Virus record (IMG/VR): IMGVR_UViG_2875459517_000006
Coordinates: 44,924 to 64,923 of that record
Source of the DNA: an uncultured virus (IMG/VR IMGVR_UViG_2875459517_000006)
Lineage: Duplodnaviria; Heunggongvirae; Uroviricota; Caudoviricetes
DNA length: 20,000 bases
Reading direction: 5' to 3' (one strand)
Shown here piece after piece: positions 5,138-18,903 of this stretch. The position numbers and the translations under genes were made by a program. Numbering within the stretch: the stretch's first letter is position 1; each line of letters begins with the position of its first letter. The notes below the pieces were generated by a model. That model searched no databases and was not told the DNA's origin. It saw only the letters and a list, made by a program, of their open reading frames with translations.

Positions 5138-5893
5138 TTAGAACGGTAATTCTTCGGAAGTAGGTTCGTTAGAGTCTGTCGCACTGCCGCCCTCTAACGG
5201 AGGCAATACAGATTTCTTAACACCGTCTTTCGCTTCGTGTAGCAGCTTAACAATGTCGCTTTCTTCACGAAAGTTTGCGAGCTCTTCGTACTTGTAATCG
5301 ATGCCGATAAATGCTTTTGCTTCTTCAATGACTTCGTCAGGGAGATCACCCGTTTCCAACGAGTACGTTTTATCTGCCTGTTTAAAGTGAACCGCCTGAC
5401 CTACGAGTGTGTAATCCGGAAGGATCTTCTTCGCAGGTTTCTCGGCCTTGTCATAGTCGTCGATTAAATTGTTCGCGTGGAACTCAGCGATATCAATTAC
5501 GCGATAGGTTTTATATTTCGGATCGTAGACCGGAATCATAAAAAACATCTTACGTTGCGCACCGGCTTTGCACGAAATGCATTCAGCCTTACCTGGACGG
5601 AAATACTGCTGTAATTCTTCCGTACCTACTTTATCGTGTGGAGAGTGCAGGCATGTGTGTTTGCGGAATTTGTGATCATAACCTTTCCCCGTGTATTCTT
5701 TATTTTCGTGAACAAAGTAGATGTACCAATCGTCAGGCTGCGCGAGAATGACTAAGTTGCGTCCGTCTTTGTTGATTTCTCCATAGCTTCCAACGCGAAC
5801 ATATCGCGTAACACCTTCCGGGAATTCACTTTCGCCACTTGACGCTTTATCCCGTTCCTCTTCACGTTTCTTTAAGATATCTCGAATGCTCAT
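5138..5893 (-). CDS. Single-stranded DNA-binding protein, T4 gp32-like
   Basis: Start reassigned to ATG 5893 (AGGGGG RBS). His/Cys cluster (VHE...HTC...CISC), acidic C-terminal tail ending SEELPF, replication-module context. Confidence 0.7.
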   Translation of the reverse strand: MSIRDILKKREEERDKASSGESEFPEGVTRYVRVGSYGEINKDGRNLVILAQPDDWYIYFVHENKEYTGKGYDHKFRKHTCLHSPHDKVGTEELQQYFRPGKAECISCKAGAQRKMFFMIPVYDPKYKTYRVIDIAEFHANNLIDDYDKAEKPAKKILPDYTLVGQAVHFKQADKTYSLETGDLPDEVIEEAKAFIGIDYKYEELANFREESDIVKLLHEAKDGVKKSVLPPLEGGSATDSNEPTSEELPF

Positions 5894-6887: not shown

Positions 6888-6988
6888 CGCACTAGGCCGA
6901 GGACATGTTCGCATAATTGTTCTCTTGAATTCGTTGACAATATGCAATACAATGAGGACGTAGCGAAAGTCCTTCGGGCCTAGCTGCG
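6888..6988. other. Long imperfect inverted repeat / structured intergenic element
   Basis: CGCACTAGGCCGAGGAC (6888-6904) pairs with GTCCTTCGGGCCTAGCTGCG (6969-6988); inner helix GCATAATTGTT / GACAATATGC. Confidence 0.5.
6925..6953 (+). promoter_or_regulatory. Candidate sigma-A promoter, antisense to the sigma-like gene
   Basis: TTGAAT-17 bp-TACAAT. Confidence 0.4.
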
Positions 6989-6991
6989 TAG

Positions 6992-7600
6992 TTATTGCGC
7001 GATCAAGTAGTCTCGGTAATCGCCGAACTGTTTGGTATCGAAATTGCGTGAGAGCTTTTCGAGTTTGCGTATGACTGTTGAGTGATGTAGACCCAACTTT
7101 TTCCCGATTGCCGTCGGAGTTGGCTTCTCACTCGAAAGATATGCTTCGGCGATTTGTATTGTCGTTGCGTCAGATGTAGTACCTAATAGGAAGTTGATCA
7201 GTTGCCGCTGGTCAACTTCTTTTTTTGTTGTCAAAAGTTCTTCCGGGGTTATCGTGCAGGGGACCTCGAATGTTGCCGCATCCTTATGGTCTCCTTTTGG
7301 TATAATTTCTCTTTTGTTTCTGTTTACCCGCCCCCTTAAAAAATAACGCCTCTGTAACGGAACACTTGCATTAAATAACCTTTCAAAATCATGCTCTCCG
7401 TTGTACGACTCAATGCAAGAAAGTAAGGTATCTTCATAAATCGCTCTTGCCTCATAATAATCTGCACCAATTGATTTACCGATCGTTTTGAACTTTCGGT
7501 CATTTCTTGTTATGAAGTAATCGTAAACCATCCTAAAAGCAGATTCACTTCTACTTTCTTGGTACTTTAATACTTCGCTATTCAATTGTTCTTTTCTCAA
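6992..7600 (-). CDS. Phage sigma-70-like factor / transcriptional activator
   Basis: N-terminus resembles sigma region 2 (LKYQESRSESAFRMVYDYF...EARAIYEDTLLSCIESYNGEHDFERLF); C-terminal HTH (PTAIGKKLGLHHSTVIRKLEKL); TTG start with GGGAGG RBS. Confidence 0.7.
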   Translation of the reverse strand: MRKEQLNSEVLKYQESRSESAFRMVYDYFITRNDRKFKTIGKSIGADYYEARAIYEDTLLSCIESYNGEHDFERLFNASVPLQRRYFLRGRVNRNKREIIPKGDHKDAATFEVPCTITPEELLTTKKEVDQRQLINFLLGTTSDATTIQIAEAYLSSEKPTPTAIGKKLGLHHSTVIRKLEKLSRNFDTKQFGDYRDYLIAQ

Positions 7601-7632
7601 TTTTACGTCCTCCCTTTTGCTTACATACGACT

Positions 7633-7659
7633 ATATGCACCTACTTACACAACCGCGCA
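7633..7659 (-). promoter_or_regulatory. Bipartite motif copy 1 (minus strand TGCGCGGT-N11-GTGCATAT)
   Basis: Same half-sites and spacing as the copy at 18877-18903; lies about 30 nt upstream of the sigma-like gene. Confidence 0.65.
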
Positions 7660-7798
7660 TTTTTTTGTTTGTTTTTTCTCTATGTGTAAATAATACCAAG
7701 TATTTTCTGCAATTATCTGAAAACGACACCCTATTTATATAAAAATAAGTAGCGCGGATACGACCTGAGTATCGTGTTTCGTAGAAGCTTTAGAAAAT

Positions 7799-7830
7799 TA
7801 AAAAACCCCACAACGTAATGTTGTGGGGTT
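7799..7830 (-). terminator. Rho-independent terminator of aimR-aimP
   Basis: Perfect 11-bp stem AACCCCACAAC / GTTGTGGGGTT with 5-nt loop, followed by a U-run on the minus strand, 10 nt after the aimP stop. Confidence 0.85.
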
Positions 7831-7839
7831 AATAAAGAA

Positions 7840-7971
7840 TTAAGCGCCAACCCGAATGTCGGCTACCTTATATCCTCCTTCGGTGCTAGCTTGATTCTGT
7901 GTATCATATTTAAATGCAAATCCTGCTGCCGCCATCACTACGATTAAAGTGGCTAATAATATCTTTTTCAA
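7840..7971 (-). CDS. aimP: Arbitrium-type signalling pre-pro-peptide; predicted mature peptide DIRVGA
   Basis: Hand translation MKKILLATLIVVMAAAGFAFKYDTQNQASTEGGYKVADIRVGA (43 aa, TTG start, AAAGGAGAGG RBS): basic N-terminus, hydrophobic signal peptide, polar linker, VA then C-terminal hexapeptide ending GA; directly downstream of the AimR-like gene. Confidence 0.88.
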   Translation of the reverse strand: MKKILLATLIVVMAAAGFAFKYDTQNQASTEGGYKVADIRVGA

Positions 7972-7989
7972 TTAAAACCTCTCCTTTAA

Positions 7990-9135
7990 TTAATTTTTGA
8001 ATTTTAGGAATGGTCTAAGCGCTCGTGAGTCAGCTCCTGCTTTCTCAAGCTCTTTCGCTACTAACCTTGCAAAAAAGAAGTTTTCTTGACAGAAAAAAGA
8101 CTCTAGGCAATTATACATTACATCTATTGACTTTTCCGCTGTGTTTTCGAAAAATATTATAAAATTGTCTTTATCGCCCCTCTCTAATATCGTATGTAAC
8201 TTCGCTAAAGAAATTTTCCCATTTCTCGCTTTCTGATATGCTCTCAGCCTGAAGTTAGAATCTTCATCAAGCTCAACGCCGTGAAAGACTTTAGCGAAAT
8301 CTAAATTGAACTTTGCCTCTTGGATATACTGCAAATCGCCCACTTCACGCATTAACTCGTAACTTTTCCGGAGGTTATACAAACAGACATTTTTATCATC
8401 CGGTAAGTACGACATCCCTATAACATAATATGCATCAGATTTCTTTTTCGCGGATATATTTGCATTAATAATGGATTCAGCAAAATCCCGAGCAGATTTT
8501 ACATCATTAAGTTGCAAACTAATAGGCGCTAATAATTCACAGACCCTGAACGTTAAGCATTCTTTATAAAAGGTTTCTCGCGGCCCTAGGTTTGTTATAT
8601 CCTTCTGGATTTCCGAGACTTCATTTATTATTTTTTGTATGTCACCTTCAAAATAGTTGTTATACTGTCGAATGATATTCATTAAGATCAAAAGTGGTTT
8701 ACTTGTTATATTGTGGAGTCTTTCTATTGCATCCTTCAGTTCAAAGCCGCTCAACGTTCCTACCATATAGTTATAAACAATGCGGTACACTTCCACCGTC
8801 TGTTTAAGAACTCCGTCAGTATTTTGGTGAAGTAGTAATAATCTTTTTAAAAGGGGAGCGTTTGTAGTAATTGCGGAGTATTCAAATGCATTTTTTATTG
8901 TTTCTGTCCGCGTGATATGCAAACACCATTCTGACAAAATTTCATGACTTCCCTTTCCTGTTTCTCTTGAAATCAGTTGAGCGAATTTAATAAGTTTCTT
9001 GAAACTTATTTTGCCTTTCTTGAAAAAATCCCTATATGCACTTTCACTCATTCCAACAAACTCCATAACATCCGTCTTTTTTATGTCATCGTGGTCTTCA
9101 ATAAAATCATGCACCATTTTTGTGATGTATTCCAA
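7990..9135 (-). CDS. aimR: AimR-family (RRNPP) peptide receptor / lysis-lysogeny regulator
   Basis: 381 aa; N-terminal HTH (DVMEFVGMSESAYRDFFKKGKISF), IKNAFEYS, TPR-like helices (AYYVIGMSYL...NLRKSYEL), C-terminal NFFFARLVAKELEK; followed by signal-peptide gene and terminator. Confidence 0.87.
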   Translation of the reverse strand: MEYITKMVHDFIEDHDDIKKTDVMEFVGMSESAYRDFFKKGKISFKKLIKFAQLISRETGKGSHEILSEWCLHITRTETIKNAFEYSAITTNAPLLKRLLLLHQNTDGVLKQTVEVYRIVYNYMVGTLSGFELKDAIERLHNITSKPLLILMNIIRQYNNYFEGDIQKIINEVSEIQKDITNLGPRETFYKECLTFRVCELLAPISLQLNDVKSARDFAESIINANISAKKKSDAYYVIGMSYLPDDKNVCLYNLRKSYELMREVGDLQYIQEAKFNLDFAKVFHGVELDEDSNFRLRAYQKARNGKISLAKLHTILERGDKDNFIIFFENTAEKSIDVMYNCLESFFCQENFFFARLVAKELEKAGADSRALRPFLKFKN

Positions 9136-9193
9136 GTGAGCCTACCTCCTTGATTATCTATTTAAATTCGATCAGCAACTTTTAACTAACTCA

Positions 9194-9223
9194 ATTATAA
9201 TTATTGCATTATCGATATGTCAA
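9194..9223 (-). promoter_or_regulatory. Sigma-A promoter for aimR-aimP
   Basis: Consensus hexamers TTGACA (9218-9223) -18 bp- TATAAT (9194-9199) on the minus strand, about 60 nt upstream of aimR. Confidence 0.8.
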
Positions 9224-9284
9224 TAATAATTTTCGGTAGTTTTTGTTAAAGCGATAATATAAAATATACTGGACACCTTTACGA

Positions 9285-9530
9285 ATGGAGGTGTTTATTA
9301 CGTTTAAGGTCGGCAAATGTCGGATACCCGAACTACGCAAGAAACGCGGAATTAGTTCCACTCAACTCGCAGCAATGGTCGGAGTATCAAAAACGCAAAT
9401 GTCCGATTACGTCAGCCTTCGGAATCTGCCGAGCATCGAACGAACCTACAATATCGCGATGATGCTCGGCTGTGCGCCCGAAGATCTGTACGATTGGATT
9501 GAGGTATCCGACAGCAACACGGAGGGTTAA
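9285..9530 (+). CDS. Xre/Cro-family HTH transcriptional regulator
   Basis: ELRKKRGISSTQLAAMVGVSKTQMSDYVSLRNLPSIERTYNIAMMLGC; the only credible plus-strand gene; divergent from aimR. Start uncertain (possibly ATT at 9297). Confidence 0.88.
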   Translation: MEVFITFKVGKCRIPELRKKRGISSTQLAAMVGVSKTQMSDYVSLRNLPSIERTYNIAMMLGCAPEDLYDWIEVSDSNTEG

Positions 9531-9541
9531 TACAACCTCCG
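9520..9541. terminator. Hairpin between convergent Xre and primase genes
   Basis: CGGAGGGTT-aatac-AACCTCCG; no clear U-tract. Confidence 0.3.
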
Positions 9542-9546
9542 CCGAC

Positions 9547-10542
9547 CTAAAGTACGGGAATTCCCGAACCTAAACGTAAAGAATGCTTCACGACCTCCGC
9601 ACGATCATACACGTCTCGCAACGCTTCTGTACCGCGCTTTATAAGTAGTTCATCAGCGTCTTTCACCTCCGTAATATAACCGTGCGCAAGCCGCACCTTT
9701 CCGATCAAATAACGCTCAATCTCCCGCCGTAACTTTTCGCCAGCTTTGTCGTTATCTGTAACCACCGTTAAATATTCGATAGGTGACTGCGCAATTATGT
9801 CCGCCTTTTGTAAATTAAATGTGCTGCCACCGGTTCCGATCGCCGGTATGCCCGCAGACCGCCACGCCATGGCATCGATCTCGGCCTCGCATATCACTGC
9901 GCTTTTAATCCGCTGCGCATACACGAGATCCATTCCGTAAACTAAATACCGGATAGGCATGCCGCCTTTTACGTACCAGAACGCCTTCCCCTTCGTCCCC
10001 CTATACTTAACGTTAGCCAGCCGCCCGTTAGGAAGCCGCCAAGGGATCGCGACTGCGTTACCGGCAAGTGATACGCCGGCCTCTTCTTGTACTGCGGCCG
10101 CAATGCCCCGGCCCGTTAGATAAGCGTTAGGTCCCGGCGTTGTGTCAGCGAGGACCGATTCCGCTAAAGGTTCCGGCTTCGTGACGGCCTTTAATTTCGG
10201 AAGCCGCAGCGCCATACGCCCGCCTTCAGCCGCCGGTGCATACGTTTCCAATAAGTAATCGATTGCGTCGTCTTCGGTTTCGCCGCGCAGGAAAGCGAGC
10301 AGTTTAACGAACCCACCCCGCGCAAACTCTTCGTCATAGGCGCCTGAGTCGCCCCAATAGCCGGCTTTTGCCGACGCTGTGTCTTCGAGGTATACGTAAA
10401 AGCTCGGAGTCCGATCGTATCTGAATGGACTGGCGGCCAGCAGGCGTTCATCGCCCCAAGTCGGCCGGGTCCAGTCGAATTGTTCGAGCTCATACCGAAT
10501 GTCGACGTCTACAAAACGTCCATTCAAAGTTAATATCGGCAA
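9547..10542 (-). CDS. Phage DNA primase (TOPRIM)
   Basis: YLTGRGI, IPW...NVKYR, ICEAEIDAM, TDNDKAG, KDADE; adjacent to helicase. Confidence 0.9.
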   Translation of the reverse strand: MPILTLNGRFVDVDIRYELEQFDWTRPTWGDERLLAASPFRYDRTPSFYVYLEDTASAKAGYWGDSGAYDEEFARGGFVKLLAFLRGETEDDAIDYLLETYAPAAEGGRMALRLPKLKAVTKPEPLAESVLADTTPGPNAYLTGRGIAAAVQEEAGVSLAGNAVAIPWRLPNGRLANVKYRGTKGKAFWYVKGGMPIRYLVYGMDLVYAQRIKSAVICEAEIDAMAWRSAGIPAIGTGGSTFNLQKADIIAQSPIEYLTVVTDNDKAGEKLRREIERYLIGKVRLAHGYITEVKDADELLIKRGTEALRDVYDRAEVVKHSLRLGSGIPVL

Positions 10543-16550: not shown

Positions 16551-16745
16551 TCACTCATTTGGCGCGTATGTCATATCTTCATCGTACCTTTGGTTTGCGA
16601 TATCCCAAGCTTCGTCGTAATCTAAGTTGTTAGTTTGAATAAATAAGTTCAGCAATTGAAGAATATAACTGTAATCATCCGTCAGTTTTTCAAATTCTGC
16701 TTGTTTTTCCGCGCTCAACTCATTCACCAGGATAGTTCCCTTCAT
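16551..16745 (-). CDS. Hypothetical protein
   Basis: 64 aa; AAAGGAGG RBS. Confidence 0.65.
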   Translation of the reverse strand: MKGTILVNELSAEKQAEFEKLTDDYSYILQLLNLFIQTNNLDYDEAWDIANQRYDEDMTYAPNE

Positions 16746-16957
16746 TTTAGCGCCTCCTTTGCGATTCTATTGATTTCCCTAAGAACGATATCTCCCTTAG
16801 AAATACTCGATACGGTCGCGATTGTACTAAGCGCAGGAACACAGCGCCGGAGTTCCTTATTCCGCAGTTCAAGCCGGTCATTCTTCGCCTTTAACCGCTC
16901 GTTCTCGCCAATCAAATCCGCCACAGCACAGCGTAATCGTTTAACTTCTTCGGTCAC
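16742..16957 (-). CDS. Hypothetical coiled-coil protein
   Basis: 71 aa; GTG start, AAAGGAGG RBS. Confidence 0.65.
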   Translation of the reverse strand: MTEEVKRLRCAVADLIGENERLKAKNDRLELRNKELRRCVPALSTIATVSSISKGDIVLREINRIAKEALK

Positions 16958-17163
16958 TTTAACGCCTCCTTTAGATCATCTAACAGTTCAGCTTCCGCAT
17001 ATAATTCGCTCATATTATCTACATGCTTGTAAACCAATCCGACGACACTCTCGATGCCTTCCTCTAACCAATTAATTTTTTCCTTCAATCGCTCGTTCTC
17101 GCGCTTAAGTGTTCGTAATTCATCCGCAATGTCCTCCGCTCTTCTTAAATAACCATCAGCCAT
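16954..17163 (-). CDS. Hypothetical coiled-coil protein
   Basis: 69 aa; coupled to the next gene. Confidence 0.65.
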   Translation of the reverse strand: MADGYLRRAEDIADELRTLKRENERLKEKINWLEEGIESVVGLVYKHVDNMSELYAEAELLDDLKEALK

Positions 17164-18876: not shown

Positions 18877-18903
18877 ATATGCACGTCAAATTAATACCGC
18901 GCA
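18877..18903 (-). promoter_or_regulatory. Bipartite motif copy 2 (minus strand TGCGCGGT-N11-GTGCATAT)
   Basis: 16/16 identity in half-sites with 7633-7659; lies between the integrase terminator and the first gene of the replication operon. Confidence 0.65.

Follow-up and report, generated by a model that had tools for sequence, protein, structure and literature searches.

An arbitrium receptor–peptide pair followed by a sigma-like gene in an integrated Bacillus siphophage: a candidate output of the lysis–lysogeny switch

When an arbitrium receptor gene, aimR, and its peptide gene, aimP, are followed directly by a gene that resembles a sigma factor, is that gene the output of the switch? The question is raised by a stretch of 20,000 nucleotides (nt), here called the window, which comprises bases 44,924-64,923 of the 64,923-bp IMG/VR provirus IMGVR_UViG_2875459517_000006 (CheckV completeness 98%). 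On its minus strand a promoter, aimR, aimP, a terminator, a 240-nt leader and a sigma-like gene follow one another in that order (Table 1). The evidence set out below suggests that this is a working arbitrium lysis–lysogeny unit of a 65-kb integrated siphophage of the Bacillus amyloliquefaciens/velezensis group, with the sigma-like gene as its output, and a probability of roughly 0.6 is assigned to this reading as a whole. Its two parts differ in strength. Membership of the locus in the arbitrium family, as AimR plus AimP, is close to certain, and every family feature that could be checked was found, including carriage by a temperate phage, a trait of arbitrium systems that is evident here from the provirus record, the integrase and the replication module. 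That the sigma-like gene is what the pair controls is favoured by a modest degree only.

The aimR product is a true AimR-family receptor of the Wbeta-type clade. An initial annotation, made from the letters of the DNA, had proposed an arbitrium-like receptor encoded by a 381-residue gene with helix-turn-helix (HTH) and tetratricopeptide repeat (TPR) regions; the gene lies where it was placed, and the family assignment is borne out. In Pfam the only match of the protein is AimR (PF22871), at 93.9 bits for a cut-off of 26.7 and over model positions 3-309 of 309. The NCBIfam equivalog NF038310 (lysogeny_AimR) is passed threefold, at 221.1 bits for a cut-off of 70 and aligned over 6-365 of 365, and phrog_1728 is matched at E 3.5e-75. 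Significant sequence matches in the PDB were arbitrium receptors only (best E 3.5e-5), and a 408-residue protein in the same 90% cluster as the receptor bears the NCBI name ‘AimR family lysis-lysogeny pheromone receptor [Bacillus velezensis]’. Structure prediction with AlphaFold2 on 24 clade members gave a model, with a predicted local distance difference test score (pLDDT) of 92.5, that contains 22 helices arranged as an N-terminal HTH and an all-helical TPR-like body, as in the solved AimRs; when this model was searched with Foldseek, ranks 1-16 were all solved AimR structures (template modelling (TM) scores 0.63-0.77).

The position of the receptor within the family was examined in a maximum-likelihood tree of 50 rows, which comprised the window, five sequences translated from loci and 44 cluster representatives (P0123-P0145 and every third of P0146-P0212, rows shorter than 330 residues being dropped). 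The window pairs with a 70%-identical relative whose peptide ends in DIRIGA (support 100/100), and this pair lies within a clade of 25 rows, also supported at 100/100, that holds Wbeta, KLEB27-1 and phi18-2; the AimR of SPbeta falls in the other main branch. SPbeta-like phages were not reached by a tblastn search of the receptor at E values up to 10. Amongst 50,697 phage records the receptor is matched best, at 35-38% identity, in Wbeta-like phages of the B. cereus group, and in the phages that share the backbone of this provirus (268TH002/007, phi18-2 and KLEB27-1) receptor identity is only 26-30%. A search of genome contigs with AimR matched 61 pattern stretches, none of which is a relative. 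The separate specificity group that had been proposed from the peptide therefore holds, as a Wbeta-type rather than an SPbeta clade whose peptide in the window follows the Wbeta/KLEB27-1 pattern.

The second gene of the pair, aimP, had been absent from the list of open reading frames (ORFs) but was noticed in the initial annotation as a 43-residue signal-peptide ORF ending KVA-DIRVGA. It is present as described, and its exact sequence is already in NCBI nr, on 14 contigs. The translation, MKKILLATLIVVMAAAGFAFKYDTQNQASTEGGYKVADIRVGA, opens with MKK and a hydrophobic stretch and closes with DIRVGA (codons 7860..7843), so that aimP is predicted to encode a secreted precursor with these last six residues as its signal. 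The proposed boundary is supported by an alignment of the SPbeta AimP (...YEVA-GMPRGA) with that of the window (...YKVA-DIRVGA), which favours cleavage after Ala and a six-residue product; the AimPs of Wbeta and KLEB27-1 also align. The mature peptide is thus likely to be exactly DIRVGA. All five 99%-identical proviruses encode ...KVADIRVGA, the 70% receptor relative is paired with ...KVADIRIGA, and the precursors of KLEB27-1 and Wbeta end in ...KTADIRPGG and ...QMVEIKPGG, respectively. Because the peptides follow the receptor tree, DIRVGA is, as judged from these sequences, a new allele of the [DE]-I-[KR]-x-G-[GA] peptide type and not a new kind of signal. EIKPGG is reported to be the active Wbeta pheromone, which loses its activity when the first residue is removed (excerpt of PMC8878798, citing Stokar-Avihail 2019). 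The VGA ending, which had been taken to set the peptide apart from RGA-type peptides, is not unusual, since GFTVGA is a common clade-2 peptide.

The string DIRVGA was absent from the ~8.4 million full texts searched and from three supplementary files of the 2026 clade-2 survey. DIRPGG, ETRPGG and DPVPGG gave no match in the same full-text search, and the matches to DIRIGA were unrelated words. Both DIRVGA and the aimR-aimP-sigma layout may be listed in the main arbitrium catalogue (Stokar-Avihail 2019) or in bioRxiv supplements. Amongst related loci, some AimP precursors carry their C-terminal motif twice, as xDKVGG...xDKVGG in L027, L045 and L071 and as AYDPGxGPIGG in L030 and L043; one such precursor might therefore yield two copies of a peptide. 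The genome of L007 has a further 27-kb contig (L008) with a second copy of the DIRIGA cassette; here aimP is intact while aimR is broken into three frames (208, 144 and 91 residues), which points either to a receptor in decay beside a signal gene that was kept or to a fault of assembly.

The gene that follows aimP encodes a 202-residue protein which is probably sigma-like, of the two-domain type resembling extracytoplasmic function (ECF) sigma factors. TIGR02937 aligns with it over 27-183 (E 0.027, 14.1 bits for a cut-off of 42.9), and its best Pfam match is HTH_50 (17.8 bits for a cut-off of 27). Its family comprises 119 relatives found, many of which are named sigma-70 or sigma-24 family by NCBI or JGI. 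The AlphaFold2 model (38 relatives, pLDDT 79) has two helical domains and a disordered linker, and the top Foldseek matches of this model are all sigma chains or initiation complexes (SigH, SigB, sigma-32, SigE, SigL and SigW).

The association of this gene with arbitrium pairs extends well beyond the window. A search of IMG/VR with the sigma alignment gave 70 loci, and in 64 of them a sigma ORF scores 90 bits or more (the others are L031 and L079-L083). Upstream of the sigma ORF and on the same strand, 57 of these 64 have a match to the AimR clade profile, and all 57 also have an AimP-like ORF; between its stop and the sigma start there are 107-283 nt in 55 cases (the exceptions are L048, at 743 nt, and L059, at 2,479 nt). 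Scores on the AimR clade profile run from 116 to 517 bits, and several receptor types therefore share the layout. The C-terminal hexamers of the 57 loci vary: ETRPGG occurs 21 times, DPVPGG seven times and DIRVGA five times, with 19 other endings in the remaining 24. A hairpin with a T-run occupies the same position after aimP in all 22 representative leaders that were compared. The order aimR-aimP, terminator, conserved 240-nt leader and sigma-like gene is common to most relatives of the sigma gene.

In comparison with phi18-2, identity is 88% for DnaB, 78% for the primase and 68% for the divergent XRE gene, drops to 26% for AimR and 27% for sigma, and returns to 90% in the next conserved gene. 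Since they diverge together inside a conserved backbone, aimR, aimP and sigma are exchanged as one variable cassette. The cassette is also poorer in G+C (aimR 35.5%, aimP 41%, sigma 41%, spacers 28-34%, over window positions 7500-9284) than the backbone (~49%). Recent transfer was considered as the source of this dip and rejected, as the dip is shared by relatives: aimR has 35-36% G+C in three backbone relatives, and phi18-2 and KLEB27-1 show the same depression, which makes low G+C a property of the cassette.

The locus was compared with the characterised arbitrium systems. The nearest characterised receptor is that of Wbeta (wp28), which is 37.5-38% identical over 98% of its length and belongs to the same 100/100 clade. 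In Wbeta, as in the relatives of this lineage, the aimR 3' end overlaps the aimP start, and the two peptides, EIKPGG and DIRVGA, share the succession acidic, Ile, basic, any residue, Gly, Gly/Ala, whereas the host groups differ (B. cereus group for Wbeta). A small ORF lies downstream in Wbeta, with a convergent CI-like gene and a Cro-like gene behind it, and these three have been shown to be AimX, AimC and AimL (Kabel et al. preprint, available text), whilst the window has the sigma-like gene at this place and its XRE gene upstream of aimR. SPbeta and phi3T (AimR clade 2, GMPRGA/SAIRGA, aimX) are more distant. The initial annotation had likened the locus to their layout, and the likeness extends to the order aimR-aimP-terminator, to the fold (TM 0.75-0.77) and to the Y-[EK]-V-A preceding the hexapeptide; it ends after the terminator, where a sigma-like gene and not aimX follows. 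Their receptors are ~18% identical to that of the window in structural alignment and lie in the other half of the tree, the SPbeta aimP does not overlap aimR, the downstream genes differ, and the window peptide lacks RGA.

The phages phi18-2, 268TH007/268TH002 and vB_BauS_KLEB27-1 share both the backbone and the layout of primase, opposite-strand XRE gene, aimR-aimP and ‘sigma factor’, the downstream gene being annotated as a sigma factor in two of phi18-2, 268TH007 and KLEB27-1. They differ in AimR, at the 26-30% identity given above, in their peptides (...AINAIGG and DIRPGG), in sigma, which is 27% identical to that of the window or gives no tblastn match, and in a second small HTH gene, which lies upstream and has no counterpart in the window. 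Within the literature searched, no functional study of these phages was found, and the announcement of the 268TH phages makes no mention of AimR or sigma. The layout of the extended module (aimX, convergent aimC, same-strand aimL) was not found in the window either: the same-strand 202-residue gene comes next, there is no convergent HTH gene downstream, and the sole opposite-strand HTH gene lies upstream of aimR. The locus thus fits the defining layout of neither SPbeta-like nor extended modules. According to the available text of the 2025 preprint of Kabel et al., ~4% of systems are SPbeta-like and ~75% extended, the rest being ‘other’ or ‘generic RP’, and sigma is not mentioned in that text. 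Amongst the literature retrieved for arbitrium together with sigma factors, none was about such wiring by title or abstract.

A repeated sequence motif may link the sigma-like gene to other parts of the early region. The two-part motif TGCGCGG-N12-GTGCATAT stands 33 nt before the sigma start codon, is repeated exactly in the spacer that separates the integrase gene from the gene that opens the replication operon, and has a degenerate copy, TCCGCGA-N12-ATGCATAT, inside aimR ~460 nt upstream of aimP. The copy inside aimR is kept at the same place in the records G007 and G010, and the generalised pattern TSCGCGR-N12-RTGCATAT occurs three times on the gene strand, at the same three places, in each of G000, G007 and G010, with none on the other strand and none for reversed-pattern controls in these three. 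At up to one mismatch the motif averaged 0.01 occurrences in 200 shuffles of the provirus. Under the strict pattern the integrase-side copy is found in four of five 99% relatives, two of which have a further copy elsewhere. In phi18-2 and 268TH007 a different motif, TGTCC-N15-ACGCATC, has exactly three copies, again on the gene strand, in the integrase-side spacer, in the sigma leader and within the 3' part of aimR, ~100 nt upstream of aimP, so that these phages, like the window, have three copies of a phage-specific two-part motif. Its asymmetry, fixed orientation and location just upstream of genes suggest that the motif is a promoter, and the fact that it changes along with the sigma allele suggests the phage sigma as its reader. 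These sequence patterns therefore suggest a candidate promoter read by the phage sigma itself. The leader holds a further element, a block, TTGGTATTATTTACACAT, with the extended -10-like sequence TGnTATTAT, which is invariant between the DIRVGA and DIRIGA lineages and is resembled by blocks in the KLEB27-1 and phi18-2 leaders; it is a candidate sigma-A promoter that AimR may activate.

From these elements the following circuit can be proposed. As far as the binding of the peptide, it rests on what is established for the family, in general and in published papers. The sigma-A promoter would make AimR and pre-AimP early. AimP would leave the cell by way of Sec, cleavage after ...YKVA would set DIRVGA free, and the host Opp permease would import the peptide; DIRVGA would then bind in the TPR groove of AimR, and AimR would stop acting on DNA. 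The steps proposed here for the window are that peptide-free AimR would activate transcription through the leader into the sigma gene, which would replace aimX in its role, and that sigma would read TGCGCGG-N12-GTGCATAT before its own gene, giving self-reinforcement. Sigma would also turn on the replication operon next to the integrase and, through the motif copy within aimR, raise the expression of aimP. At low peptide, sigma would be on and growth lytic; at high peptide, sigma would be off, and lysogeny and integration would follow. The sequence evidence leans, by a small amount, towards the sigma gene as the output of the unit. The wider proposal, that peptide-free AimR driving a self-amplifying phage ECF-like sigma, and through it the replication operon and aimP, constitutes a third arbitrium output architecture in at least 57 IMG/VR loci with many peptides, is more tentative and is put at somewhat below even odds. 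If it is true, a single bistable circuit would tie signal production to lytic commitment.

Several observations weigh against this reading. The first group concerns the proteins: the 202-residue protein stays below the cut-off of every Pfam and NCBIfam model, PDB sequences searched with its profile gave nothing better than E 0.028, Sigma70_r2 is matched by only one of 38 members of the sigma family, and the best Foldseek E value of its model is only 6.2e-4, with TM at most 0.38. AimP aligns with NCBIfam AimP_fam over 1-43 of 43 (E 6.6e-5) at 23 bits, below the 35-bit cut-off, and the AimR of the window is without a 27-residue tail kept by all relatives examined. The second group concerns the regulatory elements. 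As AimR changes in step with sigma, the two-part motif may be an AimR site; in four records of the ETRPGG type a strict second copy of the motif outside the sigma leader is found in only one, and copies inside aimR are found there only when mismatches are allowed. A search of the leader for an AimR operator identified none. Moreover, seven of the 64 sigma loci have no AimR upstream within 3 kb (L032, L067, L069, L070, L073, L075 and L078), and the 57 loci do not amount to 57 independent events, because many are near-duplicates (21 share ETRPGG). Expression, processing, binding and regulation are all predictions from sequence here. RNA reads carry no weight for or against expression: those of run X23 number zero on the window, and runs X1 and X3 hold only pieces of relatives. 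As an observation in its own right, the seven sigma loci that lack AimR may show what controls sigma where arbitrium is absent.

Of the alternatives, the most probable accepts the arbitrium pair as real and has AimR act on a small RNA or peptide in the 240-nt leader, in the manner of aimX, or on the XRE repressor; sigma would then simply come next in the early operon and have promoters of its own. It is considered unlikely. A small aimX product downstream of aimP is the output in SPbeta/phi3T and in ‘extended’ systems (Kabel et al. preprint, available text), the leader contains conserved blocks without an assigned role, the XRE gene is divergent to aimR with a palindrome overlapping the aimR promoter, and the promoter-like motifs of the sigma leader need not depend on AimR. 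The small leader ORFs, however, are out of frame amongst 99%-identical relatives; the 32-residue frame is broken in L003 and L006 and the 39-residue frame varies, and both were accordingly rejected as aimX. The XRE gene is part of the conserved backbone, whereas aimR and sigma swap together, and the adjacency of aimR, aimP and sigma holds in most of the sigma loci and across AimR types.

Other candidate elements of the leader were evaluated and set aside. The leader has a single perfect 7-nt inverted repeat, TTACACA-N31-TGTGTAA, which was rejected as an AimR operator, as it stands at about chance level and is broken in the 99%-identical L004/L005 and also in L007. A 10/12 match between the -35 region of aimR and the leader block proved to be at noise level in a genome scan. 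The leader as a copy of aimR was likewise rejected, local alignments beating all 100 shuffles in only one of 22 lineages; the best of these local alignments cluster near SDAYY codons. A separate palindrome, TGTTyAC-N4-GTrAACA, lies directly after the aimP terminator in many sigma-linked loci (L020-L072 leaders) and also over the -35 of the aimR promoter in phi18-2 (L009, ~5578-5601) and KLEB27-1 (L012, ~2237-2260); either AimR or the XRE repressors may use it as an operator. The DIRVGA/DIRIGA lineage is without it and has instead a different palindrome over the aimR promoter, at 9197-9230.

A second alternative, which is judged improbable, holds that the unit is impaired in this prophage by a one-base loss that removes the AimR tail, or that the run of five A residues (A5) at this point is a sequencing error. 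Because the A-run is one base shorter, AimR has 381 instead of 408 residues and does not overlap aimP. All seven aligned relatives carry A6, with which aimR gains 27 codons that run over the ribosome site and start of aimP. Amongst the 15 listed members of the 90% cluster of the receptor, 13 have 408 residues, one has 402 and only that of the window, on one contig, has 381; a near-identical sequence from run X20, a run in which 393 of 411 pieces are at least 99% alike, has one more base at 7993. The aimR 3' end overlaps the aimP start in 47 of the 57 sigma-linked loci as well as in Wbeta, and six relatives at 35-70% identity keep the tail G-[ED]-V-x-F-E-K-D-F-I-S. A5 is either a real one-base deletion or a homopolymer sequencing error. 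Nevertheless, the function of the 381-residue AimR is probably kept, since the whole family model is covered, in Pfam as in NCBIfam, and the protein ends where the solved 386-residue AimRs end; its model is confident, as given above, and aimP itself is intact. The tail may also be conserved because the last ~25 aimR codons cover, in another frame, the ribosome site and the beginning of the signal peptide of aimP (L002-L007, L009 of phi18-2, L011 of Wbeta and L012 of KLEB27-1; P0002 and P0123-P0128). This overlapping tail is better conserved than much of the receptor, and selection on the tail or on aimP initiation are both conceivable.

It is scarcely credible, finally, that the locus is a host-type RRNPP pair (Rap-Phr, NprR-NprX or PlcR-PapR) carried as phage cargo and not an arbitrium switch: such pairs share the general layout of a TPR receptor followed by a small secreted peptide, and phages such as phi3T also carry Rap-Phr (PDB titles), but family-membership tests have already refuted this reading, as a Pfam search at E up to 1 gave no Rap, NprR or PlcR family, the receptor passes the AimR equivalog, Rap structures appear in Foldseek only from rank 17 (E 2.4e-3, TM at most 0.55) and PrgX at rank 43, all below the AimR structures, and the receptor has an N-terminal HTH that is absent from Rap. 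The grouping with Rap, PlcR or NprR that the initial annotation had named as fatal to its proposal was not observed, Pfam, NCBIfam and Foldseek all favouring AimR.

Table 1. Positions of the features of the arbitrium locus and of related elements in the window
Feature	Position	Strand	Description
aimR promoter	9194..9223	-	TTGACA-18-TATAAT, 12/12 consensus matches, sigma-A type
Imperfect palindrome I2	9197-9230		Over the aimR promoter; 17-nt arms, 76% complementary
aimR	7990..9135	-	381 residues, HTH and TPR-like superhelix; TTG start behind AAGGAGG
Motif copy inside aimR	8428..8454	-	TCCGCGA-N12-ATGCATAT, degenerate; ~460 nt upstream of aimP
A5 run	7994..7998	-	Just before the aimR stop; A6 in relatives; gives ...KFKN-stop
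aimP	7840..7971	-	43-residue pre-pro-peptide; TTG start behind AAAGGAGAGG; 18 nt after aimR
Intrinsic terminator	7804..7830	-	After aimP; 11-bp perfect stem, 6 G-C pairs, 5-nt loop, T-run
Leader block	7682..7699	-	TTGGTATTATTTACACAT with extended -10-like TGnTATTAT; candidate sigma-A promoter
Two-part motif	7633..7659	-	TGCGCGG-N12-GTGCATAT; 33 nt before the sigma start codon
Sigma-70-like gene	6992..7600	-	202 residues, two-domain, ECF-like; proposed arbitrium output
Second exact motif copy	18877..18903	-	TGCGCGG-N12-GTGCATAT; between the integrase gene and the first replication-operon gene
XRE/Cro-CI-type HTH gene	9285..9530	+	81 residues, divergent to aimR; Pfam HTH_26 1.6e-9, HTH_3 1.8e-8

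The remaining elements of the locus are summarised in Table 1. The consensus sigma-A promoter and the perfect terminator described in the initial annotation are both in place, the latter with a stem free of mismatches and a T-run; the promoter is the only 12/12 site amongst ten promoter-like sites in 6900-9700, a region for which shuffles gave a mean of 7.3 sites. The XRE gene, which is 68% identical to GP49 of phi18-2, encodes a possible repressor of the aimR promoter. A promoter-like site for this gene, TTGTTA-16-TATACT, lies at window positions 9243-9285 on the plus strand, its -10 ending 14 nt before the ATG, and the XRE message would be nearly leaderless, like those of some CI-type repressors. 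Further genes on the strand of aimR in the window encode an integrase, a helicase loader, DnaB, a primase, a DNA polymerase and an RNA ligase. Within this early region a 139-residue ORF at 16656-17075 (plus strand) runs on the opposite strand; it has no match in Pfam or PHROG and could be the main repressor or cargo.

Considered by itself, the AimR-AimP pair adds one more allele, of an ordinary kind, to a well-known system, and relatives of the receptor are already named AimR by NCBI. The interest of the locus lies in its wiring, in which the signalling pair is placed before a sigma-like gene that carries a repeated promoter-like motif. Mechanistic studies of arbitrium have dealt with SPbeta-like phages and with the aimX/aimC/aimL module, and the available text of the Kabel et al. 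preprint leaves the remainder of the systems unexplained; the proposed sigma-linked output would be new as an arbitrium variant, whilst the pair itself belongs to the known system. The layout is found in a large group of Bacillus phages of about 55-70 kb. These phages offer natural, closely related peptide/receptor pairs (DIRVGA, DIRIGA, DIRPGG, EIKPGG and ETRPGG) for studies of specificity and cross-talk. If AimR gates sigma, the locus would provide a directly testable model of how a peptide signal is converted into a genome-wide transcription switch.

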